DNA from: a virus
Taxonomy: Duplodnaviria > Caudoviricetes
IMG/VR virus record: IMGVR_UViG_3300031998_000028
Location: 1 to 64,000 of that record
Length of the DNA: 64,000 nt
Direction: 5' to 3' (one strand)
The notes beneath the pieces are model-generated. The model did not search any database. It worked only from the letters and a program-made list of their open reading frames with translations, and was not told where the DNA came from. Positions 13,331-46,695 of this stretch are shown in pieces. Positions within the stretch are counted from its first letter, which is position 1. Each line of letters begins with the position of its first letter. The position numbers were made by a program, and so were the translations under genes.

Positions 13331-14218
13331 TTATTTTGTTCCTGTCGAACCGAATCCTTGACCGTGGTCTTTATCAAAGCTTCCAAGACTTGCTACAGGC
13401 AGCCAATTCACGATTGGGACTTCCACAAGACGCATTTGCGCGAATCGTTCGCCTTTTTCAATGATAAAACTAGAGCCATAAAGCGGCACAACGTCAAACT
13501 GATTGTCGTCTGAAACTTTACCGAATTGTACGTCTTTTATTGGTGGATCAATATTTTCAACTATAACTCCAATTTCCTCATGGTAATCACTGTCAATTAA
13601 ACCGGGCGTATTAGTGATACGTAGCTTAGTTTTACGACTAAGACCAGAACGAGGTTGAATTAAAAGGGCATAGCCAATAGGAATATTTACTTTTAAACCA
13701 GTAGGAATAACAACAGTTTCTCCAGGATTAATCGTATAATCTTCAGTAGCATAAATATCCATCGCGGCCGAACCATCGGTTGCATAAGTAGGCAATTTAG
13801 CATCTGCACGACATAGTTCAATTGGTATTTGAAGAATACGATGTGGAACATCTGTGGTGCTATTCATAGAATTAATAAAGCTAGCAAATAGATATTTAAG
13901 GAAGTCTTTTTTTGTATCTGTTAAAGTGATGTCTTCAGGCATCATTTGATCTATTGCTTCTGTAAGCAGGTCAAAATTGTTAGAAAAGTCTTCTACCTTA
14001 ACGCCTTTTTCATTCATCATTTGTACCAAAGCAATATGAGCTTCGGTATCATGAAAAGCCTGCTCAATACTGCCCATGAGAACAGGTTTAATAATTTCAA
14101 AAGATTCATCTGACATTGCCATTAGGGCGCCAAGTATTGCAATACCATCTGTATCTTCATCAGTCTCAAATACTCCATCTAATGTAGAAAAGATTTGATT
14201 TAAAATGTCTAGTTCCAT
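13331..14218 (-). CDS. dut: Trimeric dUTPase with ~125-aa N-terminal extension
   Basis: Motifs AAMD, PRSGLS, GLIDSDYH, RFAQM, GFGSTG. Confidence 0.92.
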   Translation of the reverse strand: MELDILNQIFSTLDGVFETDEDTDGIAILGALMAMSDESFEIIKPVLMGSIEQAFHDTEAHIALVQMMNEKGVKVEDFSNNFDLLTEAIDQMMPEDITLTDTKKDFLKYLFASFINSMNSTTDVPHRILQIPIELCRADAKLPTYATDGSAAMDIYATEDYTINPGETVVIPTGLKVNIPIGYALLIQPRSGLSRKTKLRITNTPGLIDSDYHEEIGVIVENIDPPIKDVQFGKVSDDNQFDVVPLYGSSFIIEKGERFAQMRLVEVPIVNWLPVASLGSFDKDHGQGFGSTGTK

Positions 14219-18118: not shown

Positions 18119-21100
18119 TACGCCACCTCTACTCGTTCATGCTTAATTATAAGTCGCGCGCCGTCAACTCCAACAATTTGTTCTACTTTGTGATATGGAG
18201 TCCGGCTATATGTCTTTGCAATAAAATCATCATCTTCTCGAATACCAGTAATAATGATTTTGTTGCCGCGAGTAAACATAGATTTTTCTATAATGTGCTT
18301 TTTCCCGTCGGCGCCTCGTTCAGAGATTTGTTTGTCATATTGCTCAAATACGCCGCCATAGATTTTTACATTTACTACTCCCGTAGTTGTAAGAATTGTA
18401 ACTGTTTTCTTTGCTTTATTACGGTCGAGGACTGTACCAGCAATACGCCGCAAAGTAAAGATTGGAACTTGTTTTCCTTTAATGGGAATAACACGTTCAA
18501 CCTCTGGCGTAGTGCTCAAATCAAAGAAATCATCAATTTGATACATACTTAAATCAATATTAGCAAGTTCGTGCGGATGGGAATAAAACGACACAGAATC
18601 CATTTCCCATTTACTAATTGTGCCCGTGCAATATTTATTCCATACATCTTCAGTGAGACGATTATTCACAGCAGTTAAAAGTTCTGCATTATTTTTCTTT
18701 ACAAAAGGACGAATAATATCCATTTGCTTTTGATAGATATTATCCCATGTAGATTGTTTAATTTTGAAACCGCTTTCAGTTTCGTCAGTTTGGGTTAACA
18801 TATCTATATCAAAATTTTTCTCTATAAAATTCATAGCGATATTATCTATACCATAATATGTACTATCTAATTTCATTTTCTTTAAATATTTATTAAAATT
18901 GAAGACACGACGCTGCATATCGTATTCATCCGGAATTAATCCAAAGTCGATTAACATACGCATATTTTGTAGAGTGATGCGCTTTTTAGTATCGCTTATC
19001 ATATCTACATATTGATGCATTATGTCGGTCCGCGCGCCGAAGCCATCAAAAGCACCGGATTTAATGAGATTTATCATCTGTACTTTATTAACTTTTACTC
19101 GCGCAAGGAAATCAGATATGGATGTATATGGACGATTTGCGATTATAAGTTTTACTAAGTCTTCTCCAATACGTGAAATACCACTTATACCATAACGAAT
19201 TATATTAGCGTCCATATCAGGAGAGAATGTAAAGGTTGATTTATTGATATCTGGTGGCTCAACCGTAATGCCGCTCATACGCATTTTACCAATTGCAGTT
19301 GCTATTTTTCCATAGTTTGTTGCGGCCACTCGTTTCTTTTTCTTGCCGTCTTTCATTACAAGAACTTCTGCGGGATAACCATCACAATCCTCTTCATCAT
19401 AGGAATCTTCTACATCCTCTTCATTATCATCCTCAGCAAACTCTTCCATCTCATTAGAATAGGTTTCTTCGGTTGGGTCGAGATTAATATCCTCTTCTTC
19501 CTCTTCTTGCTCGTTGCCGCCTGCATCTGTAATCAAACAAGCACAGTTCCAAAAGATAATGGGATATTTATAAGCAAGATTCATTTCTTGAAGAGCGATT
19601 AAACTATACGCAAGAGTATGAGATTGGTTCTTTACCACACTTAGTTTCCTAAGCCAGTTAGACTGTTGTGGTCTGGACTATACCATCATCCTTATCTAAT
19701 AAGGCGTCGTTATTATAGTCTCTGAACGTCTTTCTCAAATTATTATACTTTCTATTCATTCCAAATGGTTTATTATAAACTAAAGCAATAATTTGAGAAA
19801 TTTCGCTGCGGATTATCTAATCTTTAATAATTTTACCTTACCCGTACTTTTTCTGTGCGGCCACCATATACGTTGCCGTTATAGTTTGGTTATTAAAGCT
19901 CTAAAGAACTTCCCGCAATTTAAACGATTTTTTACTATATGTTGCCATATAGGGATTCAATTAAATTCTAAATCCATAACCTTTACTCATAGCAATCAAA
20001 ACGTCCCATACATAATGTGCAAATTTAGCATTTATACCTTTCTCTGCGGTTACACGATAAAACTCCTTTGTAAGTGCGTCGTAGTCTTTAGGGTTCTTTT
20101 TTGCTATTGACTTACGGAGCTTGTCTGCCCATGTCAGTCCAAAACCGCCGAGTTCGGGAAGCTGAACAAGTTCCATGAATTGTTCCTGTGCGATACAAAG
20201 ACCATAAGACATACCGAGAACTGGTTCCAGGATTTTTTGCTCTTGCGCGCCCAGCCCATATTTTTCGATTTCACGACTCCACGCATCGGGATTTGCTTTG
20301 AAGCGCGCGAGCTTGTTGGTTGGCATTTCTCCACCTTTTTCTTGAGCCATAAGACGAATTGTAGAGTTAAGAATTGCCAAGTCGTCAACGGATGTAGGCT
20401 TCAGAGTGGCTATGCCGTTAATACCGGATTGCTTTTCCATTTGGAATAGGGATTGAATCTCATGATTCCAAACCATTTCCCACATCTTTGGGTCATCACG
20501 TTCTATATTATAAATACCAATTATATTCTCATAAGTGGCTTTAAGAGAAGGTTCGCGCTCAACTAAACCTGCATCACAAAGCAAATCAATGCAATTATGA
20601 ATCTTATCCATCGCTTCGACAGAAAGTGCATCATATTTAATGAGTGATACAGCTTCAGAGTCATGTAATTCAAACTGCGTGCAGATTGTACCATCGGGCG
20701 CGCGCATGAGAGCAGTAGATTCAGTAAAAGGTTCATCAACAAAGATTACACCGCCGGCATGAATACCAGAGCCGCAAATCAACCCCTCAATTTTTTGGGC
20801 AACATTCCACAATTCAGAGTAGTTATTCATTTCAACGATGAATTGCTTTATGGGTGGATAATCATTTTCTTCATCACCGTTATAACACTGGGATAAAGTA
20901 CGAAGCATACCGCGGTCAGCGGGAATAAGACTTGCAATATATTGAGCAATATCTACATCAATTCCCAGACCGCGCGCAGCGGTCAAAATCGCAGATTTTG
21001 ACTTTTCGGTTCGAAAGGTTGCGACATTGGCAACTCTATCTTCACCATAATATTTACGGAAAGCACTTAATACCTGAGCACGGCGGCCGCCCTCAATGTC

Positions 21101-22470
21101 AAAGTCAACATCAAGAACAGAGACACGCTCCGGATTTAGGAAACGCCAACGGAATGTACGTGTGTTTTCTCTTAATGGATTGATTTGAGTAATATCCAAA
21201 CAATATAGAAGAATAAAACCCACTCCAGAACCTCTACCACAACCGACAAGACTACCAGCCTCCCAGCAAATGTCAATAATATTTTGAAGATTTAAATAAT
21301 ATGCACTCCAGCGCGCCTTATTGACTTCTGATGATATCCATGTGTCTTCGAGACACGCATTTATTTCATCATATGCTTCTTTTGTATTAAGGTCAAAATG
21401 TCTATAAATACCATCAATAACCGCATTTACAAGATATTTGTCTGCTGCGTATTCGGATTCATAAAATGTTTTAAGCATAGGAATACGCTTAAACCACATA
21501 GGATATTCAGTATAGTAACTAAGAACGGGCTTCCATTTTAATGTAGGAATATTGAGTGGCCGCAAGAGACTATAGTCTTGAATACTATCTTTAATCTTTA
21601 AGATATTTTGATATGCAACTTGAATTTGCTCTTCTGTCATATACTTAAAGAAAGATTCAAGTTCTTCTGTCCCCATCATATAGGTAGTCGCATAGAATTC
21701 ATCTACTTCGCGCTCGCCATTCTGTGCATTAAGATACGCCTTATGAACTACTCTATCTTCTTTCTTTAAATAGTGGGAGTCAGTTGTAATAATATAAGGA
21801 ACATCATATGTTTTAGAATAATCAAGAAGTCTTTTATTTACAATAATTTGTTCACTATTTTTTGAAGGCTGCATTTCAAGATAGAAATTCCCTTCGCCAA
21901 AAAGATTCTTTAATTGAGTAATCCAAGTACCAAGTTTTGCTTCTGATGTACCTTTGAGGATTTGCGTTGGAAGCGCGCCGCCAAGGCAAGCAGTAGAGCC
22001 AATTACATGACCAGGGTCAGCACCGATAATCTCAAATAAGTCATTGTAGTATGTAGGAACTCGCCGCATACCACGAGCCATGTAACTGCGCATCCATGCT
22101 CGCGTTGAAATTTCTCGAATCTGCCGCGCGCCTACTGCGTCCTTTGCCAATAGAATAAAGTGATAATATCTATCTACTTCTCTATTATAGTTTTGTGCGT
22201 TTAAACCGTTTCTACAAAGATAAATCTCATTTCCAAGAATTACTTTAAGGTCTGGATACTTCTCTTTAAGTTTTTTAGCTGCATTTTCAGCCTTAACCCA
22301 TCCACTAATACTTTCATGGTCAGTTAAGGCTACTACTTTGTGTCCAAGTTCTCCTGCGTAATTAAATAATTCATCTATTTTGTTGATGCAGTCACGTAGA
22401 CGAATATTTGACGCTAAGAATAATCGCTATGGTTATGGAGCGATCCTGGATAACTAAGTCGATTATTCAT
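18118..22470 (-). CDS. dnaE: DNA polymerase III alpha subunit; join(22470..22417, 22408..19970, 19629..18118)
   Basis: PHP motifs LHNHSDYS / ALTDHES / GNEIY / TDSHY, GRGSGVG, LDVDFD, HAGG, KYDAL, GYGF|NQSH and OB-fold C-terminus; interrupted by an 8-nt frame disruption and a group I intron. Confidence 0.92.
19630..19969 (-). mobile_element. Group I self-splicing intron (340 nt, no ORF) in dnaE
   Basis: Exon1 ends GGATTT, which pairs with intron GAATCC (U.G at the splice site); core elements AATTGCGGGAA (P), AATCCGCAGC (Q), GTTCAGAGACTATA (R), GGTATAGTCC (S); terminal G. Removal restores GYGF-NQSH. Confidence 0.92.
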
Positions 22471-23101
22471 TAACATCACCACCTTTCATGATTTCTTCAA
22501 TAAAATAATTACTATGAGTATTTGTTTCTTTCTTAAAATTATTCCACTCTTCCATGGTCATGTCTCGTTTGTTTAAATTTTCAAAAAGAGTTAGAAATTG
22601 TAAATTATTTAATTCGTTTGTTCCCCCACGTGATTTTGGCATGATATGATCTATTGAAGGTTTTGCTAAATCATAGAAGGTCGAACTATGCAGTTGTTTT
22701 TGCCAGAAATCATAGAGTTGATTAAATTGTAACTAATAATAAAAATACTCAATATAATCGGTATATTTGTTTATATCAATATTAGTCAAATTAATTGTCC
22801 GTGTAATACTTCTATGAATAAATAAAAATTTATCGAAATCATCAAAAGAGCATAGGTATTCTTCCGTTAGAGTTTTTACACCATTTGTTGCCAAAAAAGC
22901 ATCAATTTTCCGCAGACAGCCACAAGATTTAGTATGCCTTGCACAAGTTAATAATCTCTATTCAACTTGAGTTATGTTTCCACAATCACACTAACAATAC
23001 CATTCTTTCCTTCTTCCGGCATTTCTTCTTTTGTCTACAGGAACTAGAGAGAGCACGGTTAATCTTCCTATTCTCTAATTAGTTAAATCTTTTCCCTACA
23101 T
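22463..23101 (-). CDS. Free-standing HNH homing endonuclease (212 aa, TAG=Gln)
   Basis: MQGKDLTNQRIGRLTV...WYCQCDCG...SCGC and SIDHIMPKSRGGTNELNNLQFLTLFENLNK; 5 in-frame TAG including codon 2; stop overlaps the dnaE start region. Confidence 0.85.
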
Positions 23102-29645: not shown

Positions 29646-30563
29646 TTAGAAGCCCAAATCAAACTGCTGCTTCGAAGTTGTACCAGCAGGGGCGGGCGCA
29701 GACTTCGTTGTGGCCTTATCCTTCAAAGACTCAATATAAGCTTTATGCTCTTTAAGAGCAGCAGCTAGTTCAGCTGGGTCAAATGCCGCATCGTCTTCCA
29801 TAGGAGCCTGGGTTCCCTTGGTAACGATAAGCTCACTTACGGTAATGGTACGAATGTGCTCTTCCGGCTCACCAAAATCCATCTCCTCAATAATAGTTTG
29901 AGTAGTGGTAGTGAAGTTCAAGCGACCCTTTGCGGTATAAGTCTTACCATTCTCCCAATAGGTAGTGATGGCATCAATAACTTTAGGATTGGTTGCATAC
30001 ATTTCAAGAGTATCGACCTTTCCGCCATACTGGGGGACAATTGCCTTAATGCGAAGCTTCTTAGGCTCAACCTCAACGCCGTCCTTGTCGGTTACAAAAT
30101 CGAGAGAAGAAACAGCAAACTCAAGAGAGAAAGATGCTTCTGGACGGAACTCGTTAGTTGCCTTAGAAATAAAAGACGCATTAATACGTGGGAAAGATAC
30201 AAACTGGCCCTGCTGATTCCAATACTCATTCATGCGAATGTTACCATTGGTGATACGTACCTTATCCGCGCCAACCTTTCCGCCGGCCGCAGCAATAGAT
30301 ACATAGCTAGTCATAACCTGCTCGATGTTCTCATAAGCAGGATTAAGCTTACCAGCATTGGTATACTTGGAAGCAAACATATAAACAGGAATATCAAGAG
30401 CGACATCTTCACCGTTAATATTCTGCTCTACCAATACCTTGATATGTCCACCGATATTATCAACGGACGCACCAGTGTTCTTGTTTACATATGAACCATA
30501 CTTAAGATTAATTTCTGAAAGGATTCCTTCAATACGTACTTTGTTTTCTGCTTGTCTCAACAT
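29646..30563 (-). CDS. Putative ssDNA-binding protein
   Basis: Beta-rich two-domain protein with Pro/Ala linker and QFDLGF tail, next to the Sak4-like ATPase; codon usage typical of high expression. Confidence 0.6.
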   Translation of the reverse strand: MLRQAENKVRIEGILSEINLKYGSYVNKNTGASVDNIGGHIKVLVEQNINGEDVALDIPVYMFASKYTNAGKLNPAYENIEQVMTSYVSIAAAGGKVGADKVRITNGNIRMNEYWNQQGQFVSFPRINASFISKATNEFRPEASFSLEFAVSSLDFVTDKDGVEVEPKKLRIKAIVPQYGGKVDTLEMYATNPKVIDAITTYWENGKTYTAKGRLNFTTTTQTIIEEMDFGEPEEHIRTITVSELIVTKGTQAPMEDDAAFDPAELAAALKEHKAYIESLKDKATTKSAPAPAGTTSKQQFDLGF

Positions 30564-30628: not shown

Positions 30629-30880
30629 TTACTCTTCACCCTGTACGAAATTCATACCAGTGTCAGTAAGCTGAACATAGGTAAGGGGCTTCTCTTCGCC
30701 AGGAACCTCAACCTTCTCACGAATAGCAAGCTCATGCTTTACGAGAGAGTTGACACGACCGGTAATAGAAGCGATTTTGTCGCAATTAAGAGCAACACGC
30801 ATCTCCTCAGTAGTAGCGCGGCCGCCATGTGCCTGTAGGTACTCAAGAGCCTCAAAAGTCTTTTCAGTTAACTTAGCCAT
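30629..30880 (-). CDS. Small winged-helix DNA-binding protein
   Basis: SITGRVNSLVKHELA...YVQLTDTG wHTH pattern; AAGGAG SD. Confidence 0.65.
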   Translation of the reverse strand: MAKLTEKTFEALEYLQAHGGRATTEEMRVALNCDKIASITGRVNSLVKHELAIREKVEVPGEEKPLTYVQLTDTGMNFVQGEE

Positions 30881-30998: not shown

Positions 30999-31027
30999 AT
31001 TATAACATAAATTTTCATTAAAATCAA
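30999..31027 (-). promoter_or_regulatory. sigmaA-type promoter for the wHTH/SSB/ATPase operon
   Basis: TTGATT-N17-TATAAT with TG. Confidence 0.75.
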
Positions 31028-31030
31028 ATT

Positions 31031-31582
31031 TTAATAAATAAATTTTGATATGGTAGAAACTAATAGGTGATTAAACATTAGATGAATATCTTCTGTTATT
31101 TGCATATTATTAATTGGCGCCCATAGATTAATATGTGCTAATTGTTTTAATTTTCCGCCATCGTATCCAGTTAAGCCAATAACAGTGGCCCCATGCCCTA
31201 AAGCATAAGTTACTGCATTAATTACATTGGGTGAATTGCCACTACCAGATATAGCAATAATAATATCGCTAGATTTAACGCGTCCGCGCAATTGATGACG
31301 AAATACCTCTTCATAAGAAATATCATTTGCTATTGCCATGATAGTTGCTATATTATCATTTAAACAAAAGCAATTAGCATTTAAAATTTTATTAAAGTCA
31401 TTTGTTAGATGAGAAGCTGTTGAAGCGCTACCACCGTTTCCAAAACAATAAATACATCTTTGATATTGTACTGCTTCATATAAAAGTGCAGCAGCCTTCT
31501 CTATTTCTACCATATCAAGATTTTTTAATACGTCAATTTCTTGAGCCAAATAATTACCTAAAGTTTCTTCAAAAACTATCAT
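31031..31582 (-). CDS. gmhA: Sedoheptulose-7-phosphate isomerase (SIS domain)
   Basis: GNGGSAS, AIANDISYEEVF, ISGSGNSPNV, LTGYDGG, QITEDIH. Confidence 0.92.
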   Translation of the reverse strand: MIVFEETLGNYLAQEIDVLKNLDMVEIEKAAALLYEAVQYQRCIYCFGNGGSASTASHLTNDFNKILNANCFCLNDNIATIMAIANDISYEEVFRHQLRGRVKSSDIIIAISGSGNSPNVINAVTYALGHGATVIGLTGYDGGKLKQLAHINLWAPINNMQITEDIHLMFNHLLVSTISKFIY

Positions 31583-32796
31583 AAAATTTTCCTCACCGCA
31601 TCTAATATGTCTACTGCGTCTTGTGGAATTATAATGGGTTTAACACCTACATTAATACCAGCTTGTTTATCTCGTTCTGCGTCTCCAATAATCCATGATT
31701 GCGACAAGTCAATATTATATCGCTTGGCCGCCTTCAACAGAAGACCTGGTTTCGGTTTTCGACAATCACAGTCAATTTTGTATTCTTTATTTTCGTCTGG
31801 ATACCCTCTATCTTGGTGATGAGGACAGAAAAATATATCATTAAGATATGCTCCCTCTCGACCAAGTGAATCTTCTAGTTTGGCATGAATGTAATCTACA
31901 TCTTTCATCGAGCACATTCCGCGCGCGACTACTGATTGATTTGTTACTACAATGGCTAAGTATTCTGAATCATTAATAAGTCTTAGCGCGGCCGCAGCGT
32001 TTGGAAGGAGGGTTAATTGACTTGGATCAGATACAAGTCCGACCTCTTCATTAATTGTTCCATCTCTATCAAGAAAAATTGCTTTTTGTTTATTTTTAAG
32101 ATTTCGATGAAATGGAATATTATTAATTATATCATTACTTACTTGATAATATCTGTCTACTGTTCCTATATCTTTAACATATTCAGAAGATGAATAGGCG
32201 TACAAATATTCTAAATATGGCAAAATCTCTTTTTCTAAATCAACTTTTGCGTGGTCTGGAAAAACATTTAGAATGCTTTTGTTAAAAATGTAAATACCAG
32301 CATTTGTGCAATTATGTAGCCATTTATTTCGTGCTTGTCCTTTAAAGATAATTTGTCTTATACGATTATTTTCATCTAATTCAATTAAATCGGAATCATA
32401 TGGATGTGAATTGGGATGAACAAATAATGTACCTTCTCCCTTATGCTGATGATGAAAGTTAATCATACGTTGAAAATTAATATTAAAGAACAAATCTCCA
32501 TAAATTAGAAAAAAGTCATCATCTAACAGGTCTTGTATTATTGGTAAAGCACCAGCGGTTCCAAGCGGCTCGTCTTCTTCAAAATAACGTACTGTTCCGC
32601 CAAATTTATCAAGAATTAAATCTCCTAAATGTCCAACCACTACAATAATATCATCTATTCCATTCTCTTTTAAATTTTCAATTTGCTATTGAAGTAGTGG
32701 TTTCCCACAAATTTCAATCATTGGTTTTGGAATTTTATCTTGAGTGAGTGCTCTTAATCGAGTACCTTGGCCGCCGGCCATAATTACAGCTTGCAT
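31579..32796 (-). CDS. Heptose-1-phosphate guanylyltransferase (HddC-like) fused to heptose-1,7-bisphosphate phosphatase (GmhB); TAG at codon 37
   Basis: MAGGQGTRL...[24 protein letters not shown]; then [30 protein letters not shown]. Confidence 0.9.
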
Positions 32797-32799
32797 ACT

Positions 32800-33777
32800 T
32801 CACCTACTATCGTATATAACTTTAGTTCCGTCATCTTCAAAATTAAAAGGCATTTCTATTAAATCTAGTGCTTCTCTTAGCCGTGTTTGATGTGATTTTG
32901 GGCAATAAAATAATAGAAATCCACCGTTACCTGCACCTAATAATTTACCGCCAAGGGCGCCATTATGTATAGCAATATCATAATATTTATCAATAATGGG
33001 ATTTGCAATTTTACTTGCCAAGCTACGTTTTAATATCCAGTTAGTGTGTAGTAAAAATCCAATTTCATCTAAATTGCCTACGCTGAGGGCGCGCCGTGCA
33101 TCATAAACAAGGTCAGTCATTTGTAATAATTTATCAAATTTTTCTTTGTCATCAATAATATTTTGACTTTGCTCTTGTAAAATTTGATTTGCTGAATGAG
33201 TAATACCAGTATAGAATAGTAACAAATTATTATTTAACTCTTGCATTACGTCATATTTTAAATATATCGGCTTTACTTTTACTTCTTCATTTGGCAAAAA
33301 TTTAATCATTTTGATGCCGCCAATAGCGGTTCCATATTGGTCTTGTTTTCCAATTGGCTCTTTTAAGATATTTAGCTCTAACTCACACGCTTCTTCTGCT
33401 ATTTGCGCCTATGAATATAATTCATCTTTATAATTGTGTAAAGCATTTATTAAGCCCACTGTATACGCACTTGAGGTAGAAAGTCCTGTACCTGAAAGTA
33501 CATCTGCCATACTTGTAATTTCTACACCTTTAACGTTATGTTTTAATAATAGCTCGCGCGCGATTGGATGTTGTATATCATGTACATCCTATACAATTTC
33601 AGTTTTATTATACTTTACTATTGTATCTTGTTGATTAAAGGTAGGGTGTATCATAATATACATATATTTATTAATCGTTGTCGTTAATACACAACCTTCA
33701 TGTTGGTGATAGAATGATGGTAAATCTGTTCCACCACCAATGAGGCTCACGCGAAATGGAGTTCGTGTAATAATCAT
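32800..33777 (-). CDS. hddA: D-glycero-alpha-D-manno-heptose-7-phosphate kinase (GHMP); 2 TAG
   Basis: RTPFRVSLIGGGTD, GTGLSTSSA, IGKQDQY, GGKLLGAGNGGF; in frame through TAG. Confidence 0.9.
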
Positions 33778-35156
33778 ACGTCTATTTTTAAGGATAAGTG
33801 AGTATTAGAGCCAGGACGACGATAGTTGTAGAAATAAGATGGTATAGATAGATACAGGACTTCGTCTCGTGTATTTGCTTTCAATACCCGTTCCATAAAT
33901 TCATTATCTTCTTGAAAGCGTATGTCTGCAAAACGAAAATCTTTAATAAAATCATATTTAAAAATATATTGCCAAACCATTGAAAAGTGTTGCATCTTAA
34001 AATAATTACTAACGAAATTTATTTGCATTATGTTTTCGCCTGGGTTATTCCACAAACTATCCATACATTGTTGAATGATTTCGTGGTTAATAATCCAATC
34101 ATCACCATCAACAAACCATATATACTTACCTTTGGCATAGTCAAGGCCGTAGTTACGCGCGGCCGCGACAGTTTTACCGTGACTATAAAGAATTTGATAG
34201 TTCATATCAGACATATAGGAACTAATTATTTTTTCTGTCGAGTCTGTTTCAGTATCTAAAACAAAAAGAATTTCATATTTAATTCCTATAAAGTTTACTA
34301 TGTGAAAGCTAAGAAGTAGATTTTTAATATAATCTGGAATATTTTTGCACGGAACAATAATTGATATATCCAATGGTTGAGTTTCTTCAGCTTTTATCTG
34401 TTGCCAAACTTCATCATCATAAAGGTCTTTTACATAATATTGAGGCCATAGATAGAAATATTTATAACTTGAATTTTGATTATTCCAAAACTTATAATTA
34501 AGCATATGGTATATTTTGACATCTTCAATAGGTGGAATATTTTTATAGTTTATATTTCCAAAATTGTAAATAGTGTCAAGATATTTAATATACCCATCAC
34601 AAGCTAAATTTATAGCATCTTGGTCTGGCAAAGGTAACTTAATATTATTAAGTATAGAAAACCATTTATCGTCAATTTTATTTTCTCGAATGAACTTTAA
34701 ATTGAATAAAACCACACCGGAATTAATGTATTTACTTTTCTACATTTTCTTGCGTGGCGGCATACACCAATCCATTATTAGGTCTTCATCTCTATCTTCA
34801 GGCCAGGCCGCGATAGCATAATCAGACATATCCATATTCCATAATTCATCAAGATTACCTAATACTAAAGTGTCTATATCAAGATATAACACTTTATCTT
34901 CTTCTAAAAGTTGTGGCAGCCAACACCGAGACATTTGCATGGCATTGGCGCCACTATTTGGGCCATCTGATAATGGGAAATTTGGGATTTTATCTTTACT
35001 AATAATTTTTATATTTTTTGTTCTTTTAATACAATCAAGTGTTTCGTCTTCGGTAATAATATACACAAAGGCGTCTGGATTGTGCGTAAATAAAGAGTTT
35101 AATGCAGTAGGTAAATACTAATCTACATTACGACTCGAAGTATATACAACTATCAT
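33774..35156 (-). CDS. Bifunctional glycosyltransferase, GT8-like + GT2-like (460 aa; TAG at codon 13 and at 34740-34742)
   Basis: GT8 motifs YLDIDTLV, YINSGV, DQDAIN; GT2 motifs ISIIVP, AARNYGL, FVDGDDW, ED, YNYRRPGS. Confidence 0.88.
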
Positions 35157-35170
35157 TTTATCGTCTCCAT

Positions 35171-37504
35171 TTATAGACTTGAAATACTAATTACATGGTT
35201 ATTAGTTAATTTTATTAATCTGACGCCTTGTGTATCACGAAGGGACAGTGGAATATCATTGTACTTGATACGAATTTGAGTTGTTGTTGAATTAATGAGT
35301 ATATCTTCAGTAGAAACCAATGGTATAAAGTCACACATTTGTTCTGATTTTTGGATACGTACACCTTTAGTGTTAGTATTTGTAATATTAAAATCAGAAA
35401 GACGAGTAAGTTTACCATATCCATCTTCAGAAATACTGAATAGCTCTTTTGTCGTGGCTGGGATGGCTCGCGCGCTCTGTACGTAATCACCTGGATTTAA
35501 TTTCATACCCATAATGCCACGAGTTACACGACCAATAGCATTGATAGTGGATGAATTAATCATTATAAATTGACCTGCGCGTGACATTATGCCTATTTTT
35601 TCATCTATTAAAGTAAAGATAGAAGTAATTTCATCACCTGTATCTAGCTTTACAGCTTGCGCGCCGGTATTACGTTTGAGATTATATTCACTGAGCTTAC
35701 TTTTCTTTATGATGCCCTTACGAGTTATAAAGACAATAAAGCGATTTTCTTGTTTTGGATTTAGAATTACTGCGGCCGTGGCATTATCGGTAAGACCATA
35801 AGCAGAGAGATACTGTTTTTCTCCAATGGCAAAAGCATTGAGTTTTGTATGATAATAATTTCCTTTATTATTAAAGAAAAGAATTGTATCTGTATTTTGA
35901 CCTATAAGATTATCGACAATAAATTCATCAGAGTCAAGCTTAAATTTTGCACCGACTCCACCGCGGCGTTGTGTAAAGAGACTGGATGTTTCTATTACAA
36001 ATACTGCACCTTTGTTGGTGAAAGAAATAGAAAGTTGTTTTTCTTCTACTACTTCATCTTCATCGGAGATTATGTCCATAATTTTTGTGCGGCGCGCGTC
36101 ACCCAGTAGTTTAGAAATCTTTTGAAAACCTTTTTCAATTTCTTTATAGAAAAGAGTTTGGTCGTTGAGGATAGCATTAAGTTCGTCGCGCTTTTTCTCA
36201 AGTTCTGCTTTTTCTTTTTCAAGCTTTTCAACTTCCAAATGAGCAAGGCGTGCAAGCTTAAGGTCAAGGACGGCTTTTGCTTGGACATCATCAAGTAGGA
36301 ATTGTTTTGTAAGTTCAACGCGCGCCGTCTGTGAGGATGCACTAGACTTGATGACTTGCACTACTTCATCAATAGAAGCAAGACAAATCAAAAGCCCTTC
36401 AAGGATATGAATGCGGGCTTCTACTTCGTGGAGGTCATATAGAAATCCACAACGATAGACGAGTTTTTCATGTTTTAAATGCTCTTCAAGTGCTGCCTTC
36501 CATCCAAAAACTTGCGGGAAGCGGCCATCACGCAGCATTGTCATATTAATGCCGTAGTGAGATTGAAGTGAGGTATTTTTATAAAGTGATTTAAGAACTT
36601 TGGTTGGATTAGCCTTTTTGACGAGATAAATTTTTAAAAGAATTTTTTCTCCAGTGAGGTCGTTGTAGCGTTCAATACCAGGGTTGTCTTCGGATTCGAT
36701 TAAAGCATTAAGTTCTTCTCGGATTGTAGAAGTATAAACATTGTATGGGATTTCGGTCACTACAAAACAGTTATCTTTGGGGTCCCATTCGACCGTACTT
36801 CTTAACTTACAGGCCGCGCCCGTTCCATTTTTTAATGACTCTTTTACTTGGGATTCATTGAGTAAGGTCGCGCCCGTCGCAAAGTCTGGCGCGCAGTATA
36901 TATCTTCAAAGTCTATATCTGGATTCCACAATAATTTTATAAGTGCTTCATTGACTTCTTTAATATTGAATTGTGGAATCGAACTTGCTGCGCCAACTCC
37001 GATACCAAGAGAACCATTTACTATATTATAGTATCCTTTAGAGGGAAGAATTGCAGGATATTGCTTAGTATCATCATAGTTATCACGCCATTCTGCAATT
37101 GTGTCTTTATCTATATCTTCAATGATATGATTAAAAATCTCTGCCAGGCGTGCGGAGGTATAACGTGGAGCAGACCAGTTACCAGTCATTTTTGCATCGC
37201 CATTAGAACCTTCAACTTCGACAAGCGGATAGCGCATAGCAAAATCTTGGCTTGCGCGCATTATAATACCTTCACAAGAAGCGTCGCCATGAATGTAATA
37301 GTCTGCCATGGCGAGACCAATGGCGTTATTTGTCTTTTTGAACGGCTTACTATGCACAAGTTTATTTTGATACATAGAATAGAAGATTTGACGCGCAGAT
37401 GGCTTGAAGCAATCACGCACATCAGGAAGGGCGCGAGATTGTAATACTGCCCCAGCGTATGACGTAAAGGCAGTATTAATTATATCAGTCATTGTTTGGG
37501 ACAT
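35171..37504 (-). CDS. gyrA: DNA gyrase subunit A
   Basis: RALPDVRD, HGD, APRYT (catalytic Tyr), PDFATG, beta-pinwheel CTD with GyrA-box-like QRRGGVG. Confidence 0.9.
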   Translation of the reverse strand: MSQTMTDIINTAFTSYAGAVLQSRALPDVRDCFKPSARQIFYSMYQNKLVHSKPFKKTNNAIGLAMADYYIHGDASCEGIIMRASQDFAMRYPLVEVEGSNGDAKMTGNWSAPRYTSARLAEIFNHIIEDIDKDTIAEWRDNYDDTKQYPAILPSKGYYNIVNGSLGIGVGAASSIPQFNIKEVNEALIKLLWNPDIDFEDIYCAPDFATGATLLNESQVKESLKNGTGAACKLRSTVEWDPKDNCFVVTEIPYNVYTSTIREELNALIESEDNPGIERYNDLTGEKILLKIYLVKKANPTKVLKSLYKNTSLQSHYGINMTMLRDGRFPQVFGWKAALEEHLKHEKLVYRCGFLYDLHEVEARIHILEGLLICLASIDEVVQVIKSSASSQTARVELTKQFLLDDVQAKAVLDLKLARLAHLEVEKLEKEKAELEKKRDELNAILNDQTLFYKEIEKGFQKISKLLGDARRTKIMDIISDEDEVVEEKQLSISFTNKGAVFVIETSSLFTQRRGGVGAKFKLDSDEFIVDNLIGQNTDTILFFNNKGNYYHTKLNAFAIGEKQYLSAYGLTDNATAAVILNPKQENRFIVFITRKGIIKKSKLSEYNLKRNTGAQAVKLDTGDEITSIFTLIDEKIGIMSRAGQFIMINSSTINAIGRVTRGIMGMKLNPGDYVQSARAIPATTKELFSISEDGYGKLTRLSDFNITNTNTKGVRIQKSEQMCDFIPLVSTEDILINSTTTQIRIKYNDIPLSLRDTQGVRLIKLTNNHVISISSL

Positions 37505-37733
37505 TATCATTCTCCTTTATTATTCGTTCATATCTAACATAAGGAGTACACTGACTAGTTAGCAAAGCCGCCCAGTTCATTCCAAGCATAAAACCAATAT
37601 CAAAATCTTTGGAATCAGCATAAGTAGAGTTTTGTATATATTTTTTATACTCACCAGACATAATATTATTTACAATAAAAGTTTGAAATTCTTTTTGGTC
37701 AATAAAAATACCACTTATTTTTTCGTTTTCCAT
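37485..37733 (-). CDS. Hypothetical protein between gyrB and gyrA
   Basis: AAGGAG SD and its own promoter. Confidence 0.65.
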   Translation of the reverse strand: MENEKISGIFIDQKEFQTFIVNNIMSGEYKKYIQNSTYADSKDFDIGFMLGMNWAALLTSQCTPYVRYERIIKENDNVPNND

Positions 37734-37760: not shown

Positions 37761-37789
37761 ATTATATCATAAAAATTGAGAAAAGTCAA
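37761..37789 (-). promoter_or_regulatory. sigmaA-type promoter driving gyrA and the heptose cluster
   Basis: TTGACT-N17-TATAAT with TG. Confidence 0.8.
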
Positions 37790-39997: not shown

Positions 39998-41284
39998 TTA
40001 ATTACCTTTTATATAGTTAGTATTTTGATTAAACACTGTTGTAAGATCTGCTTGTTCAACCCATGAGCCACTTACTTTTTTAAAGGCTTTTGTTATCTAT
40101 ACCCAACTTCCATTATTTTTAAAATATATTGTGTTTGTACTAGCTGTACTCACTACAATAGTATGGTCAGCAGTAATATTAGTAAGTGTATAACCCCAAT
40201 ATGTACGAGGAGTAAAAGCTTCATTTAAAGTAATTGAAACTTTAAATTGCAGACTATCATTATTAGAATCTGTGTAACTGTCCTTAAAATACTTTACATA
40301 AATGTAATGTTCTCCAGCAGTCACATTTGAATATGTTACAGTCTGCACACTGGACGAGTTGTTGTTCTTGCCGTTCCAATAGACATTTGATGTATCAGCA
40401 CTTGCGTTAGTATTTAAGGTTTTGTCTATATTTGATAGTAAACCATAGTCATATGTACTTTCTGCATAGTTAATTACACTAAATGTTATCGTTGCCGCCA
40501 CCGGAAGAACGAAATCCACCCGGCAGACGGCCGCAGAACTCGCATGAGCTTTGTTGTTGGACTCATAATAGTTGTTGTTGTTTAGGGCAAAGCCATAGGT
40601 TGTTGTTATATTTGTGACTGTATAACTCGCGCCCGTTTCTGTTCCCTAAACCAACTGGCTCGTTACATCGACGTTATTATCTGTGACGGTCGGCTTTGTA
40701 TCTTGATAAGCCTTGACTGTAAGAGATGTTCCTTCAAGAACACTCGTCGTTCCGCTCGGAGAAACGTCTGTTCCGCTTACACTTATGTTATGATAGACGG
40801 GAACGGTGTACTCAACATCTATTTCCGCACCATAAATATATATGTATGCGGTATTATTTCTATTCGACCGCTTGCAGTTGATTCGGATACCAAAGTTATC
40901 CCCATAACCTTTTAAGGTAGCCCAAGTTATTGTCGTATTTGAAAATGTCCTCGTTGCGGCCGATGTTCCGAAAGACGAAGCGCTGCCCGCAGAGCTTACT
41001 TGGGTCGTTCCATTATAACAGTAGAATGTGCCCGTACTGCCGTTGGTGTGGTAGCCTCTAAGCTTGATAGTTATACTGCTAACTATTGCATCATCCGGGA
41101 CAGAAGAGAAATTGAAGCCCCTTAAATATATATATCGGTTTGATGTTGAACCATTTATGTTTTCGACAGTGGCATAGGTACTGCTGTCCGTATTTGTATA
41201 GGCGTTTTCTGCATTGGTTACAGTTAGGTAGTTCGTTCCTGCATAGTTATATAGAATAGATGGTACTAATCTTGCTGTTGCCAT
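39998..41284 (-). CDS. Ser/Thr/Asn-rich beta-sandwich virion/adhesin protein (428 aa, TAG=Gln)
   Basis: Track ORFs 40646 and 40097 join through TAG to TAA; C-terminal KNNGSWVQ...KKVSGSWVEQ repeats. Confidence 0.7.
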
Positions 41285-41292
41285 GATTCACC

Positions 41293-42459
41293 TCACGATG
41301 AGGTTTGGAGATAAATGTCTCCATTATTTCCTAAACCAGCAGAAGGAATGCCAGTTCCTGTATAATATGACTAAATTACAAGACTACCAGTAATAGAACT
41401 ACCTCTAACATATGCTGTTTTATTCTATAAAATATCTGCTGCAGAAGCTGTAGCATCTGAAGTAAATGTACCAGTTATACTTGTTATACCATCAGTAGCG
41501 TTAGCATCGCCGACTTTAACGGTACTTCCCATTTTGATTACACCTGCTGTTAAACCAGTTAAAACTACTGCTTTAATAGTTTGCTTACCGGTTAGGTATT
41601 GCCCTGACGCGATTGTTTGATCGGTGATCTAGGGATAGTATGTAGTAGCTGCTTTTACGGTAAGCTAAGATGTACTACTGCCACTGACCGTGATAGTTCC
41701 GGCTGTACCCCCATAGTTCCTTATATATCCACCCGAAATAGTTGGGGTTACGCTTTGTGACGCACTCGCCGTTACGGTAATCAAACCTGTCGAACTGTTC
41801 ACACTGATAGACGGATTTGCTGTTATTGTTGTGGCGGGAGTCGTAGCCGAGCCATTCGGAACAAGAAAATCGGTATAATTTGGGTAATATCCGGAATATC
41901 CATACACTACATATCTGCCACTGTCATACTCACCATTTAGAGAGGTACGAACCGGCACCCCAGACCCAACATAAGAACTGCTGATGGCATTTATCTACAC
42001 CGAATTTAGACCATCGTATCCAGTATCATAAGTAATTGTCTAACTAGATTCAGTTGGTACAATACCAGTTTTTGTCTAAAGATTTGGAGAAGCTGCTGAG
42101 ACAGCTACATTAACTGAAGCATAGGCTGCGATGTCAATTCCGGTTCCGTTGGCTGTAATTGTTGAAGTGCCAGTAGGAACTATATATTGACTTGGAATTG
42201 CATTTATCTAAACAGAAGATAATCCATCATATCCATTATCTGCTGTAATTGTCTAACTACTTCCTGTTGGAGATATATTACTTTTTGATTGTAATACTGG
42301 TACGCCACTACCACTACTACCTGTGCCTGTAACCTATGTACCATCCGCAAGATGGCCAACATAACCAGATAGAATATGACTAGCGGAGGTAACTGTATCC
42401 TATGATAAGTCAATAAGTGTAGTTCCATTTGCTGTAACTTTATTATAAATTGTTGGCAT
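41293..42459 (-). CDS. Tail-fibre-like Thr/Ser-rich protein (388 aa, TAG-rich)
   Basis: MPTIYNKVTANGTTLIDLSQDTV; internal repeat LQxKxxIxPTxSSQTITxDxGYDGLxSVQINAI; ends TGA. Confidence 0.75.
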
Positions 42460-42471
42460 ATCAGTTCCTCC

Positions 42472-43383
42472 TCACGATGTGCGTATTAGTGACATATGGT
42501 CACTATCCGCGCCGGTTCCGGATATTCTCATATACTTTGCGTTTGCCGGAATATTTGACCCGCTGATATTTCCATACCCAGTGTTGCTGTCATCCGGGTC
42601 GGCTGTGGCATAGTTATAAACATAAATAGTTGCAATTGCAGCCTTTGCTTCTGTATAGAATGCCATATATGTCCACAGTCCTGCTCTGTAAGAGAAGTTC
42701 ATTCCGGTCTCAACAGGTGTATAATCAGAAGCATAATACCATTGCTGAGATGTGGCGCCGCCCTGAGCGTCTATTGTCGTATCGCTAGATACTTTTGTGT
42801 AATCAATGAGTTGCGTATTAATTGGAATAGTAGTTGGTTCATACCATGCAACGTCATCAAGCTCGGCGAGGGTTACAGTCTTATTGTTATACGTCACAGG
42901 AGTATAAGAAGTTATCATTGTACCAATTAATGAATCATCATAGTAGACATCTATATCTGTATCTGTACTATCAGAAAATTCTAAATGTATAGTGTGCTAT
43001 GTAACTGATGGTGTGCCACCACCGCTACTATTACTAGCGGTAATTTCTGCTGTTATACCGGTGCTATTTGCAGAATCGGTAATAGTAAATGAGTTAGGCA
43101 CATTGACTATTACTGAAGAATATCCATCTGCACTATCATCTACAGCGGAATACGTAGCATTAGCTGCAATATTTTTTGTAATTAATACTGCGCTACTGCC
43201 GCTGCCTGCAACATTAACAGATGCAATTGCGTATGAAGTAATATCTATATTTGAACTATTTGCGGTAATTTCTAAAGTTCCTTGCGGCCTTATATATGTT
43301 AAAGTAGATGAACTACTCGCGGCCGCTTTAAAACCAGCAACATTACTATAAGTTGTACCAAATATGGTTAAAGAGTCAGGCAT
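42472..43383 (-). CDS. Tail-fibre-associated protein (303 aa, one TAG)
   Basis: Track ORFs 42997 and 42472 join in frame through TAG. Confidence 0.7.
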
Positions 43384-44442: not shown

Positions 44443-45792
44443 TTACGGCGATTCCTCAAATATATAATCCGCATAAGTAGACCAGTTAGTTGCTGTCTTA
44501 TAAGCATTGAGTACGCTGTGATCTGCGGAGTAAGGTACATAGATTTTCTTGCCGCCTGCGTCTGTCATGTTGGTAAATGCATTGGTGTCGGTAAGAGTCG
44601 GAGGTGTGGTTTTTGCGAAGTGAAATTCAAATAACTGCCTTGCGTTGTTGAACATATTCGCACCAACAACGGGCAAGCTTGCAGGAAAGACCAGACTCGT
44701 TCCCAAATCTGCACAGCCTCGGAACATTTCGCTTGTGTCTGTCGCGCTTGACATATCCCACGAATTTATAGTTATTTTTTCAATGGCGTTGCAACTATGG
44801 AACATAGCGGCAAAATTTGTTACCAAATCAGCATTCCATCCAGAAATATCAACTTCGCGCAAATTGTAGCAATACTAAAATGTTTGTTTAAAGGAGGTTG
44901 CTGCATTTGTTTCCCATTCACTCACATCTACTGTTTCCAACGCAAAGCACTGATAGAATGTTTGATTAAAAGTTAAGACTTTTTTTACATTCCATCCGCT
45001 TACATCAACAATTTTAAGATCACAACAATTATAGAATACCAAATTGAGACTTGTTACATTGGACGTATCCCATCCTGTTGTATCAACTTTTACAAGATGC
45101 CTATTATTATAAAAAAGACTTTCCATACTCGTGGTACTGGATGTAATAAAATATGGAAGCTCAGCCAATATTAAGGCATCATTATCTCGAATCATGTGGT
45201 TCCCCGCACCGCCTGTCATATATAGATGTTCAAGAAACTTCATAGCCCGGAACGTCGTACTTGTCGAGTTTTGCAGTTTGCCTCTTGCTTCAGCTAAACC
45301 TTGGTTTGTGTTGAAACGATATTGCCCGTTATAGCTGTTTATGCCGTTATAGTTAGTCGTAAAATATGTTATATTTCCTGTGACACGGATAACTTTATAG
45401 CCGCCCAAAGCAGACCCAAAATAAAGCTGACAGGCGTTGTTGGAGTTGTAGCTTTGCGTGGAATCTGCCGTGAACGTAGACCCGGAAATCGTGCCGACTT
45501 CCACGGTGTACTGCCCGGAGGAAGTCTTGCACTTTATGTCGCAGAAGCCATTTGCCTCGTTTGCGATATAAGTCAGATAGAGGATGTTGCCGCTGGATAT
45601 ATCGAGGTTGTCAAGATTAGGCCAATTATTAGGGCGTGTCCACACAACGCTACTGCCACTCGGAATATCCTCCACATAACTTGCAAATCCATCCTGTCCC
45701 CATGTCAGATCATTCTGTGTTCCGAGCTTTGTCTTTATCGCATCTGCGGTATCATCAATAGAGTCCGTAGGGACTATCATATATTCACTCAT
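44443..45792 (-). CDS. BspA/DUF285-type leucine-rich-repeat surface/receptor-binding protein (449 aa, one TAG)
   Basis: Repeats WDTSNVTSLNLVFYNC / WNVKKVLTFNQTFYQC; C-cap IYVP...YKTATNWSTYA; two track ORFs join through TAG 44875-44877. Confidence 0.8.
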
Positions 45793-45804
45793 GGCTTGAC
45801 CTCC

Positions 45805-46695
45805 TTACGTTGATGGAATTTCAGTATCATCGGCATAGTGCGTTTCATAATACGAACCTTCAATCTGCGCCCATGTTATCGTGCCATATCCGTCAATAGT
45901 AGACCAATTTGTAGCAGCTTTGTAATCGGATGAAGTGCCGTCACCGAGATGGTCATATAAAGATTTTGGGATATAGATTGTGCCGCCTGTACCGCCTGAC
46001 GCAAATGGTGTATTTGTAAACGCTGAAACATTCGCTAACGGCCACACCTTATTAGCGTATCGAATAATTAACGTATTAAGGGCCGTCGCTCCATTAAACG
46101 CATTAGCATATATACTTCCCGGAGCATTAAGGCTTGAACTACCAATATCTAAATACACCAACGCTGTACATCCAGCAACAAACCAAGACCATATATTCCC
46201 ATTTTTAACGGCAGGAAAAACAAGCCCTGTTATAGATGTGCAATTTTGGAAAAACCCAGTCGCAAGATTTGTAATTATATCAAATCCTAAGCCTAAATTT
46301 ACAAGATTTACACAACCTTTAAAAATATAATCGGCTCTATCGAATGAAACAACTTTTGGTAAATTTACAGTCGTCAACGCAGTACAACCCTCAAATGTAT
46401 ATACTTCTGCTGCGCCACGTGCGACAGTTGTAACATTATTCCCGGTAAAACTTGTAAGTTGCGTGTCTCTATAAAATAGATATGGCGGCAAAAAGGTTCC
46501 AGAAAACACTATATCTCCCGGGATATTAGCACTTGCAATATCTTCAAGAGTATACCCGATTTCAATATCCTCAATCGCATCCGCGAATCCTTCCTGTGTA
46601 AACTCAATACTTGCCTGAGAACCGGTCTTTTCTCTTATGGCATCTGCTGTGGCATCAAGTGAGTCTTTTGGCACAATATAAAATTCATTAGACAT
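45805..46695 (-). CDS. BspA-like LRR_5 protein
   Basis: FEGCTALTTVNLP repeats; C-cap IYIP...YKAATNWS; N-terminal DATADAIREKTG anchor shared with the next gene. Confidence 0.8.
   Translation of the reverse strand: MSNEFYIVPKDSLDATADAIREKTGSQASIEFTQEGFADAIEDIEIGYTLEDIASANIPGDIVFSGTFLPPYLFYRDTQLTSFTGNNVTTVARGAAEVYTFEGCTALTTVNLPKVVSFDRADYIFKGCVNLVNLGLGFDIITNLATGFFQNCTSITGLVFPAVKNGNIWSWFVAGCTALVYLDIGSSSLNAPGSIYANAFNGATALNTLIIRYANKVWPLANVSAFTNTPFASGGTGGTIYIPKSLYDHLGDGTSSDYKAATNWSTIDGYGTITWAQIEGSYYETHYADDTEIPST

Follow-up and report, generated by a model that had tools for sequence, protein, structure and literature searches.

A candidate, exchangeable GDP-heptose glycosylation cassette in a fixed slot next to gyrA of a TAG-recoded phage

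The first 64,000 nucleotides of IMG/VR virus record IMGVR_UViG_3300031998_000028 (the window) carry, at positions 31,031 to 35,156, four genes that encode a predicted route to a nucleotide-activated heptose together with a glycosyltransferase (GT) of two catalytic domains. The record is linear, 114,915 bp in length and 96% complete by CheckV, and its source is an uncultured, rumen-type phage that decodes TAG as glutamine. Our best explanation is that the four genes form a glycosylation cassette that is optional, is exchanged horizontally and makes up the 3′ end of the gyrA transcription unit. Taken as a whole, wherein this exchangeable GDP-heptose cassette serves to glycosylate the proteins of the virion, the explanation is a tentative one that we place ahead of its competitors while stopping short of calling it probable.

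Translation of this region with table 11 yields only fragmented open reading frames (ORFs). With TAG assigned to glutamine, it resolves into four contiguous minus-strand ORFs that begin and end exactly at its limits, and the Pfam domain matches of the encoded proteins continue through the in-frame TAG codons. The recoding is sound because tail genes are dense in TAG (~30 per 1000 codons; one 2431-aa ORF holds 74 in frame), replication genes are poor in it (0.6), and glutamine is frequent at the TAG columns of aligned relatives. The corresponding value for the cassette is 3.6. Its genes, in the order GT8-GT2, hddA, hddC-gmhB and gmhA, are coupled by 4-nt overlaps or a 3-nt gap between neighbors, and their starts are preceded by GGAG or AGGTGA elements resembling Shine-Dalgarno sequences. 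Only 14 nt separate the first gene from the end of gyrA, which lies upstream. The reading of TAG as glutamine assumed in a preliminary description of this DNA, as well as its account of four coupled genes directly downstream of gyrA, is therefore borne out.

The product of the first gene matches Glyco_transf_8 at residues 72 to 226 (E = 1e-20) and Glycos_transf_2 at residues 265 to 358 (E = 5e-17) in Pfam. Its layout comprises a GT8 domain of retaining type (approximately residues 1–250) followed by a minimal GT2 domain of inverting type (approximately residues 255–460). The translation includes the motifs DID, HxxxxKxW, DGDD and ED (base motif), and residues D305, D352, D353 and D417 are near-invariant. 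The hddA product has both GHMP_kinases_N and GHMP_kinases_C domains in Pfam. Its top NCBIfam family is HddA (152 bits, relative to a cut-off of 600), and its matches among PDB sequences are the heptose kinases 3K85, 4USK/4USM (WcbL) and 4N3O, with E values of 1e-34 to 3e-41.

The third protein joins an NTP_transferase domain (residues 3–224, E = 3e-30) to a HAD domain. Its nucleotidyltransferase half, which carries a GxGTRL motif, scores 88 bits with the HddC family (cut-off 300) versus 123 bits with mannose-1-phosphate guanylyltransferase, and matches 7WHR, GMPPB, GDP-mannose pyrophosphorylases and the HddC structure 6JQ8 (81 bits) in the PDB. The GmhB half scores 147.9 bits with PRK08942 (cut-off 178) and 128.8 bits with TIGR00213, matches 2GMW, 3L8E and 4PNH, and retains DRDGT along with the CxH...CxC zinc loop. 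The gmhA product matches SIS_2 (E = 2e-20) and scores 99.7 bits with TIGR00441 (cut-off 209) and 101 with a further NCBIfam model (cut-off 276). When aligned with 5BY2 and 1X92, it keeps GNGGS, SGSGNS and the C-terminal histidine, and has aspartate at the position of the catalytic glutamate.

Because all four enzymes score below the NCBIfam equivalog cut-offs, we file them as divergent members that appear to work like a GDP-heptose pathway, and regard the predicted product, GDP-D-glycero-α-D-manno-heptose, as a well-founded inference. The gene identities, the fusions and the product proposed in the preliminary description thus hold up as predictions from Pfam, NCBIfam and PDB matches and from conserved motifs. 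The presence of a GHMP kinase, and not of a PfkB-type HldE/HldA kinase as in the ADP-β route, points to the α/GDP route, which has been established for Aneurinibacillus and Campylobacter (PMC10680097). GDP is the probable nucleotide, although it is the least certain part of the predicted product. Fusions of HddC to GmhB are widespread in bacteria, with at least 8000 homologs.

Several observations indicate that the cassette is in use. Relative L001 (the L and G numbers are our identifiers for related sequences) has a gyrA protein 97% identical to that of the query phage, and comparison of the two gives dN/dS values of 0.10 for the GT gene, 0.05 for hddA, 0.06 for hddC-gmhB and 0.18 for gmhA, and 0.04 for gyrA. 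Because catalytic motifs are present and these ratios lie between 0.05 and 0.18, the genes are not decaying; the decay in relatives that the preliminary description had named as a sign against its proposal is not seen, and purifying selection is maintained. Among 120 listed hddC-gmhB clusters, approximately 40 are 58 to 95% identical to that of the query phage, and all four such relatives whose contexts were read reside in this same phage module. The GT8-GT2 lineage of the query phage comprises approximately 20 clusters.

The cassette occupies a slot that extends from gyrA to an 83-aa MarR-like gene, beyond which relatives carry genes for YorF, AAA_24, YorH, DnaB and DnaG. The contents of this slot vary among relatives (Table 1), and in three essentially complete genomes that lack a cassette no GT2 domain was found genome-wide. 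The phages with a cassette group as a single clade of a gyrA tree (support 93/95), and those without one lie outside it. The types of cassette are mixed within this clade and do not track gyrA phylogeny. GT2 sequences cluster by donor module, with 52 to 66% identity within the heptose type and 42 to 51% across types. Between the query phage and L020, conservation is higher for the GT than for gyrA. Moreover, gmhA is only 75% identical to its L001 counterpart while the adjoining genes are 95 to 97% identical (dS of 1.08 versus 0.2–0.4), and this divergence marks a recombination junction within the cassette. Whole or partial cassettes thus appear to have been swapped repeatedly, as judged from the mixing in the gyrA tree, the grouping of GT2 sequences, the conservation of the GT relative to gyrA, and the divergence of gmhA.

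The GT2 domain belongs to a family of ~200 aa that is restricted to phages (approximately 97 clusters, 37–94% identical; stand-alone homologs of 198–213 aa), the next group being 330-aa bacterial GT2 proteins at 29% identity. From this distribution, GT2 appears to be the constant enzyme on the acceptor side, with an interchangeable donor supply. Since GT2 is constant across cassettes and the donor genes are exchanged, we infer that GT2 is the heptosyltransferase and GT8 an added second transferase.

No cultured relative emerged from our searches. Comparison of the cluster DNA with 50,697 phage records gave three short, weak matches to unannotated fecal contigs, and protein searches retrieved no cultured phage with the query GT and none with a gyrA protein more than 34% identical. 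Records of "Bacteriophage sp." from feces with HddA matches were set aside as unannotated, bacterial-looking sequences of 58 to 73% GC. Likewise, L005 (47% identity) was not used, given its serine recombinases and UDP-glucose dehydrogenase remnant, which identify it as an integrative element of another kind. Attempts to assign the radical-SAM partner found in some slots returned only generic matches (MoaA, viperin, BlsE, DesII and spiro-SPASM), all far below cut-offs.

Table 1. Features of the gyrA slot and related loci (window coordinates unless a relative is named).
Feature	Location	Strand	Basis and remarks
gyrA	35171..37510	-	DNA_topoisoIV, E = 2e-103; synteny in relatives; upstream gene in the same transcription unit; left border of the slot
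GT8-GT2 bifunctional glycosyltransferase, 460 aa (predicted)	33774..35156	-	Pfam, NCBIfam, AF2, Foldseek; TAG at Q13 and Q139
HddA-type GHMP kinase (D-glycero-D-manno-heptose 7-phosphate anomeric kinase), 325 aa (predicted)	32800..33777	-	TAG at Q63 and Q123
HddC-GmhB fusion, 405 aa (predicted)	31579..32796	-	Nucleotidyltransferase, residues 1–225; GmhB HAD-IIIA heptose-1,7-bisphosphate 7-phosphatase, residues 236–390
GmhA-type sedoheptulose-7-phosphate isomerase, SIS domain, 183 aa (predicted)	31031..31582	-	No TAG
83-aa gene, right border of the slot	30629..30880	-	No Pfam match of its own; border kept in all relatives
YorF-family gene, after the 83-aa gene	29646-30563	-	YorF matches from syntenic homologs
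Promoter-like site before the gyrA-cassette unit	37761..37789	-	TTGACT-17-TATAAT with TG; consensus match only
Promoter-like site right after the gmhA stop	30999..31027	-	TTGATT-17-TATAAT with TG; consensus match only
GT2b, second GT2 gene, 323 aa	52833..53804	+	3 TAG; between baseplate-type genes and DNA ligase; abuts ligase
Slot type: GT8-GT2 and three heptose genes	Query phage, L001/L008, L020
Slot type: stand-alone GT2 (198–199 aa) and heptose genes	L003, L004, L034
Slot type: methyltransferase-GT2 fusion and heptose genes	L015
Slot type: radical-SAM/SPASM (251–254 aa) and GT2 (201–205 aa), heptose genes absent	L023 (9331-10691), L025 (2190-3550), L044, L045, L046
Slot type: no GT or sugar genes	L027–L033		One with an HNH-like ORF only; gyrA 52–56% identical

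The AlphaFold2 (AF2) model of the GT8-GT2 protein (pLDDT 86.5) shows a pair of GT-A domains with a poorly ordered linker between them. Foldseek matches to the whole protein are the dual-domain polymerases LARGE1, K4 chondroitin polymerase (K4CP) and heparosan synthase. For the individual parts, the matches are LgtC and GlyE (GT8) and TarS, TarP, RmlT, CgT and a 190-aa Leptospira GT (GT2). Giant viruses and uncultured phages contribute many of the viral matches, in the form of multi-GT proteins. The likeness to LARGE1 (GT8 and GT49) and to the Escherichia coli K4 polymerase lies in the tandem GT-A domains (top whole-protein match, E of ~3e-17). However, TM-scores are low (0.35–0.44), the order of domains and the second family differ, and relatives with GT2 alone cannot polymerize in that way. 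Both GT domains are acidic (pI 4.7–5.2), and no hydrophobic segment was detected in the GTs (maximum 19-residue hydropathy 1.56). A TarP-like fold has also been found for DNA GTs (Burke et al., bioRxiv 10.1101/2023.12.21.572611), and the query GT resembles these in fold class and carries R...DxDD...ED motifs. Because folds of this kind serve DNA, teichoic acid and protein acceptors, the structure search did not separate these acceptor classes, and the fold is uninformative on this point.

These assignments suggest the following sequence of events. GmhA would convert host sedoheptulose 7-phosphate to D-glycero-D-manno-heptose 7-phosphate, HddA would phosphorylate the anomeric carbon to give the α-1,7-bisphosphate, and the GmhB half would remove the 7-phosphate, after which the HddC half would form GDP-D-glycero-α-D-manno-heptose, probably with GDP as the nucleotide. 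The minimal GT2, as a putative inverting heptosyltransferase, would then place β-heptose onto the acceptor. GT8, an add-on of one sublineage, may attach a second, α-linked sugar, and repeated alternation of GT2 and GT8 as in LARGE1 and K4CP is possible. As a best guess, the acceptors would be structural proteins of the phage, whose particle would thereby gain a coat of glycans.

We reasoned that the acceptor is cytoplasmic because the enzymes are soluble and membrane and export genes are absent: Pfam scans of the phage ORFs turned up no Wzx, Wzy, ABC-exporter or polyprenol-GT genes. Among cytoplasmic targets, virion proteins are our leading guess, held with some reserve, ahead of wall polymers of the host and then DNA. 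Several parallels were counted in favor of this target, each by analogy. The first is found in the unrelated siphophage L021 (9276-11644), where one protein combines a cassette-family GT2 with a GT2b-like domain and its gene adjoins one for a SPASM radical-SAM enzyme. These two genes are flanked by an 871-aa gene and by other genes of the tail region, with the portal gene upstream, and the 871-aa gene, which has no Pfam hit, probably encodes the tape measure. The second is the GT8-methyltransferase-GT2 form seen in some relatives, which may parallel A064R, the GT-GT-methyltransferase protein that builds the capsid glycan of PBCV-1 (PMC7826918). The GTs that glycosylate the virions of Che8-type mycobacteriophages also lie outside the structural module (cited in PMC11256854). 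In addition, the TAG density of the cassette fits expression after the switch in code. GT2b (Table 1) is a possible partner of the cassette GT2; similar genes occur in G004 and G005, and in G004, a relative without the cassette, the gene lies beside dNMP (deoxynucleoside monophosphate) kinase and ligase genes.

A number of points weigh against glycosylation of the virion by this route. Ser/Thr-rich tail proteins had been put forward as plausible acceptors, but they look like ordinary fiber or β-rich proteins and not like the serine-rich-repeat type; our search for serine-rich-repeat-like acceptors returned fiber-like proteins, which gave no support either way. The neighbors of the cassette are replication genes and that of GT2b is ligase, and homologous GTs in other relatives adjoin genes for RNase H, dNMP kinase and ligase, an arrangement that fits a nucleic-acid target too. 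We know of no precedent for direct O-heptosylation of protein by a GT2 enzyme. With all scores below the equivalog cut-offs, the specificities for sugar and nucleotide are predicted ones. Finally, a TAG codon at an otherwise invariant tryptophan may, as judged from alignment, weaken or abolish the nucleotidyltransferase in the query genome.

Just upstream of gyrB, the minus strand (39998-43383 and 44443-46695) encodes three acidic proteins with 26 to 29% Ser+Thr (428, 388 and 303 aa, the middle one with 11 TAG codons), together with one CBM5/12-like protein and a pair of BspA-type LRR/DUF285 proteins. All of these are probably adhesin or fiber-like.

The first competing explanation, which we consider unlikely, is that soluble GT2, with or without GT8, glycosylates a lipid-linked glycopolymer of the wall (wall teichoic acid or secondary wall polysaccharide, for example) at the cytoplasmic face, in the manner of TarS, TarP and RmlT. 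The altered receptor on the infected Gram-positive cell would bring superinfection exclusion or reduce the loss of progeny on debris. Indeed, among single-domain structures the GT2 part is best matched by TarS, TarP and RmlT, all GTs of teichoic acid, and TarP is prophage-encoded (Burke et al., bioRxiv 10.1101/2023.12.21.572611), but the fold match is silent on the acceptor given its occurrence among DNA GTs. The host does seem to be a Gram-positive anaerobe, as indicated by an endolysin with lysozyme, CHAP and LysM domains, by NrdD/NrdG, and by BppU. Furthermore, the one bacterial hddC-gmhB copy whose context was read sits in a surface-polysaccharide locus, and the swapping of sugar types between close relatives fits a rivalry among phages over receptor masking. 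However, GT2 is a bare catalytic core of ~200 aa that ends at residue 460, without the C-terminal part through which TarS and TarP oligomerize or bind polymer. The phage also looks virulent, with no integrase or repressor in Pfam scans, and the in-frame TAG codons imply expression only under active suppression, which is late for remodeling of the cell surface.

The second competing explanation, that heptose and then a second sugar are added to a modified base of the phage DNA as armor against restriction, seems improbable to us. It would follow the example of the T-even phages, RB69 and metagenomic clusters that make glycans on 5-hydroxymethylcytosine (5hmC). There is precedent for the enzyme types, with TarP/JGT-like GT-A enzymes adding the first sugar to 5hmC and GT8-like enzymes adding later ones, and mono- and di-heptosyl-5hmC from a metagenomic phage cluster have been reconstituted in E. 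coli (bioRxiv 10.1101/2023.12.21.572611). Phages RB69 and DLP3 make their own nucleoside diphosphate sugar with an analogous isomerase, kinase, GmhB-like phosphatase and nucleotidyltransferase (PMC13326640). Around the cassette and related GTs lie genes for gyrase, ligase, dNMP kinase and RNase H (the last next to the relative with the GT8-methyltransferase-GT2 form), and fast-swapped accessory genes are typical of anti-restriction functions.

No enzyme that would make a suitable base was found, however. To our knowledge, DNA glycosylation always needs a base that bears a hydroxyl group. The preliminary description saw no base hydroxymethylase in the window, and our family searches bear this out and extend it to the whole 114.9-kb genome: PF00303, PF00145, PF12851, PF13640 and PF01702, the families of acceptor-base enzymes, are absent from this 96%-complete sequence. 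There is no thymidylate-synthase-like hydroxymethylase or hydroxylase, C5-methyltransferase, TET/JBP or other 2-oxoglutarate oxygenase, or TGT/DpdA, and Pfam scans of the remaining ORFs revealed none. No variant of the cassette supplies such an enzyme, and cassettes of the heptose type are without even the radical-SAM gene. A 305-aa neighbor was considered as a base-modifying enzyme and rejected, as its syntenic homologs carry Pfam YorF matches; its PHROG match is of unknown function. Neither this protein nor a 381-aa neighbor matched PDB sequences by phmmer.

The composition of the DNA tells the same way. Across the whole genome GATC is observed 64 times versus 288 expected (ratio 0.22, z of approximately −16), ATCGAT is observed 0 times versus 10.5 expected, and GATATC, TGTACA and GAATTC have ratios of 0.29 to 0.38. 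T-even genomes, whose DNA is modified, show relaxed avoidance of restriction sites. The avoidance of GATC and of these 6-mers implies restriction pressure from the host and argues against DNA that is globally shielded. Moreover, the methyltransferase-fused variants have no counterpart among known DNA glycans. DNA is the least likely of the three targets named in the preliminary description (virion proteins, DNA and the host envelope), because no acceptor-base enzyme is present, GATC is avoided and both GT domains are acidic.

With regard to other words in the genome, CCATGG is also depleted, whereas GCGC, CGCG and CGGCCG are mildly over-represented. The sequence GCGGCCGC occurs in 28 copies genome-wide (window positions 4046 through 63190, and beyond) versus 0.17 expected from base composition. 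This excess vanishes under a 7-mer Markov expectation; the copies are part of longer GC-rich repeats, and no link to the cassette was found.

The third and weakest explanation, wherein the enzymes activate another sugar phosphate (as in the RB69-type arabinose route) or the cassette is crippled by the change of Trp37 to TAG, is suggested by the scores relative to cut-offs (152/600, 88/300, 148/178 and 101/276), by the preference of the nucleotidyltransferase half for mannose-1-phosphate guanylyltransferase models over HddC, and by look-alike sets of isomerase, kinase, HAD and nucleotidyltransferase enzymes that make UDP-arabinose in RB69 and DLP3 (PMC13326640), but it is very unlikely given that the best family and PDB matches of all four proteins are heptose enzymes and not the arabinose-5-phosphate isomerase or APH-type kinase of the RB69 route, that the GmhB zinc loop and the catalytic histidine and acidic residues of GmhA are present, and that purifying selection is strong. 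The codon at issue, number 37 (window 32686-32688, minus strand), is the only TAG in hddC-gmhB and falls in a KPLLxWQIE motif where every relative, including two phages with a 95% identical protein, has TGG for tryptophan. The enzyme is a W37Q variant if TAG encodes glutamine and ends at residue 36 otherwise. In a phage with the former code, the change is a substitution and not a stop; it could be a real variant, a polymorphism or an assembly error.

Comparison with known systems indicates that the pathway itself is the known α/GDP heptose route. The cassette shares its four predicted activities with the S-layer pathway of Aneurinibacillus thermoaerophilus and the capsule pathway of Campylobacter jejuni (PMC10680097), and its top PDB matches are to heptose enzymes. 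Unlike those pathways, it is phage-borne, uses TAG as a glutamine codon, has HddC fused to GmhB, is without tailoring enzymes, scores below the equivalog cut-offs and has a product that is a predicted one. The 5hmC clusters of Burke et al., including the heptosyl "contig 53," likewise pair soluble phage-encoded TarP/JGT-like GT-A and GT8-like enzymes with a nucleotide-sugar supply of their own and, in that case, with heptose. Those clusters, however, always include a C5-methyltransferase and a 5mYOX/TET enzyme, both absent here, and their heptose example uses a bifunctional HAD/APH enzyme together with a cytidylyltransferase and a transferase of GT-B type, all of which are missing here.

The Che8-type GTs (cited in PMC11256854) and A064R (PMC7826918) are also virus-encoded, soluble, multi-domain GT-A proteins, and the Che8 GTs are unlinked to structural genes. 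The present system differs in its predicted use of heptose, in having the donor pathway beside the transferase, in its Gram-positive anaerobic host and in a glycoprotein acceptor that is putative. Caulobacter phage Cr30 (with a GT, D,D-heptose 7-phosphate kinase, phosphoheptose isomerase and epimerase) and Synechococcus phage Bellamy have clusters of an HddA-type kinase (30–34% identical), GmhA and a GT. Both are T4-like phages of Gram-negative or cyanobacterial hosts, whose clusters include epimerases and unrelated GTs, have no HddC-GmhB fusion and lie outside the gyrase slot. The nearest solved single-domain folds to GT2, those of TarS and TarP from Staphylococcus aureus and RmlT from Listeria, share the DxD and ED motifs, but identity is ~17 to 23%, their C-terminal domain is missing here, and the donor is presumably GDP-heptose versus UDP-GlcNAc or TDP-rhamnose.

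The statement in the preliminary description that no phage heptosylation system had been characterized is consequently out of date. A claim to the first such system fails because the Cr30 and Bellamy clusters are annotated, functional viral heptose-nucleotide enzymes have been reported for the β route (PMC11461863), and heptosyl-5hmC has been reconstituted. What is new is the anatomy: a minimal GT2 found only in phages, a fixed slot with exchangeable donor modules, add-on domains, and a TAG-recoded clade without a cultured relative.

Several further observations concern the slot and its surroundings. The promoter-like site that follows gmhA would, judging from its consensus match, start the next unit (the 83-aa MarR-like gene, YorF and AAA_24), and the homolog of the 83-aa gene at the syntenic position in L015 has weak MarR matches. 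In L034, the module of gyrB, gyrA, GT2, the heptose genes, YorF and DnaB lies on a 343-kb ENA scaffold, approximately three times the size of other genomes in the clade; concatemer formation, mis-assembly or a relative with a much larger genome could account for this. In L031–L033 and L045, gyrB, gyrA and DnaB are interrupted by insertions of HNH, LAGLIDADG or intein-like type, and DnaE in the window is split around an HNH gene (19961-23101). Genes related to nucleotide metabolism include those for a dUTPase-like protein of 295 aa that is extended at its N terminus (13331-14218), dNMP kinase (59780-60304) and NrdD/NrdG. Outside the window are a xanthine/uracil permease gene (E = 1e-47; L011:347-1576, genome 64347-65576) and an ORF for an NT5C-type deoxyribonucleotidase within genome positions 64 to 99 kb.

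As a single instance, with a known pathway, a candidate target and no cultured phage, the cassette is moderate news. It does show that genes needing TAG to be decoded as glutamine can sit in replication operons that are otherwise free of TAG. Phage GTs with a nucleotide-sugar supply of their own occur in many lineages, and their targets are known for few (DNA of the T-even type, the virions of some mycobacteriophages and the capsids of chloroviruses). The slot amounts to a natural experiment that could be used to find the acceptor, given that the acceptor-side enzyme is constant, the donor modules are exchanged and the cassette is missing in sister phages. Restriction, rivalry with other phages, and the stability of the particle or its recognition by the immune system are among the candidate forces that would select for the switching of glycans in gut and rumen phages. 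In the broadest version of our proposal, which we advance as a doubtful one, this TAG-recoded clade of phages of Gram-positive anaerobes would use a plug-in module of fixed GT2 and swapped donor genes to lay a strain-specific heptose coat on its own particles. If true, this would be without precedent both as a heptosylated virion and, among phages, as an instance of interchangeable virion glycotypes.

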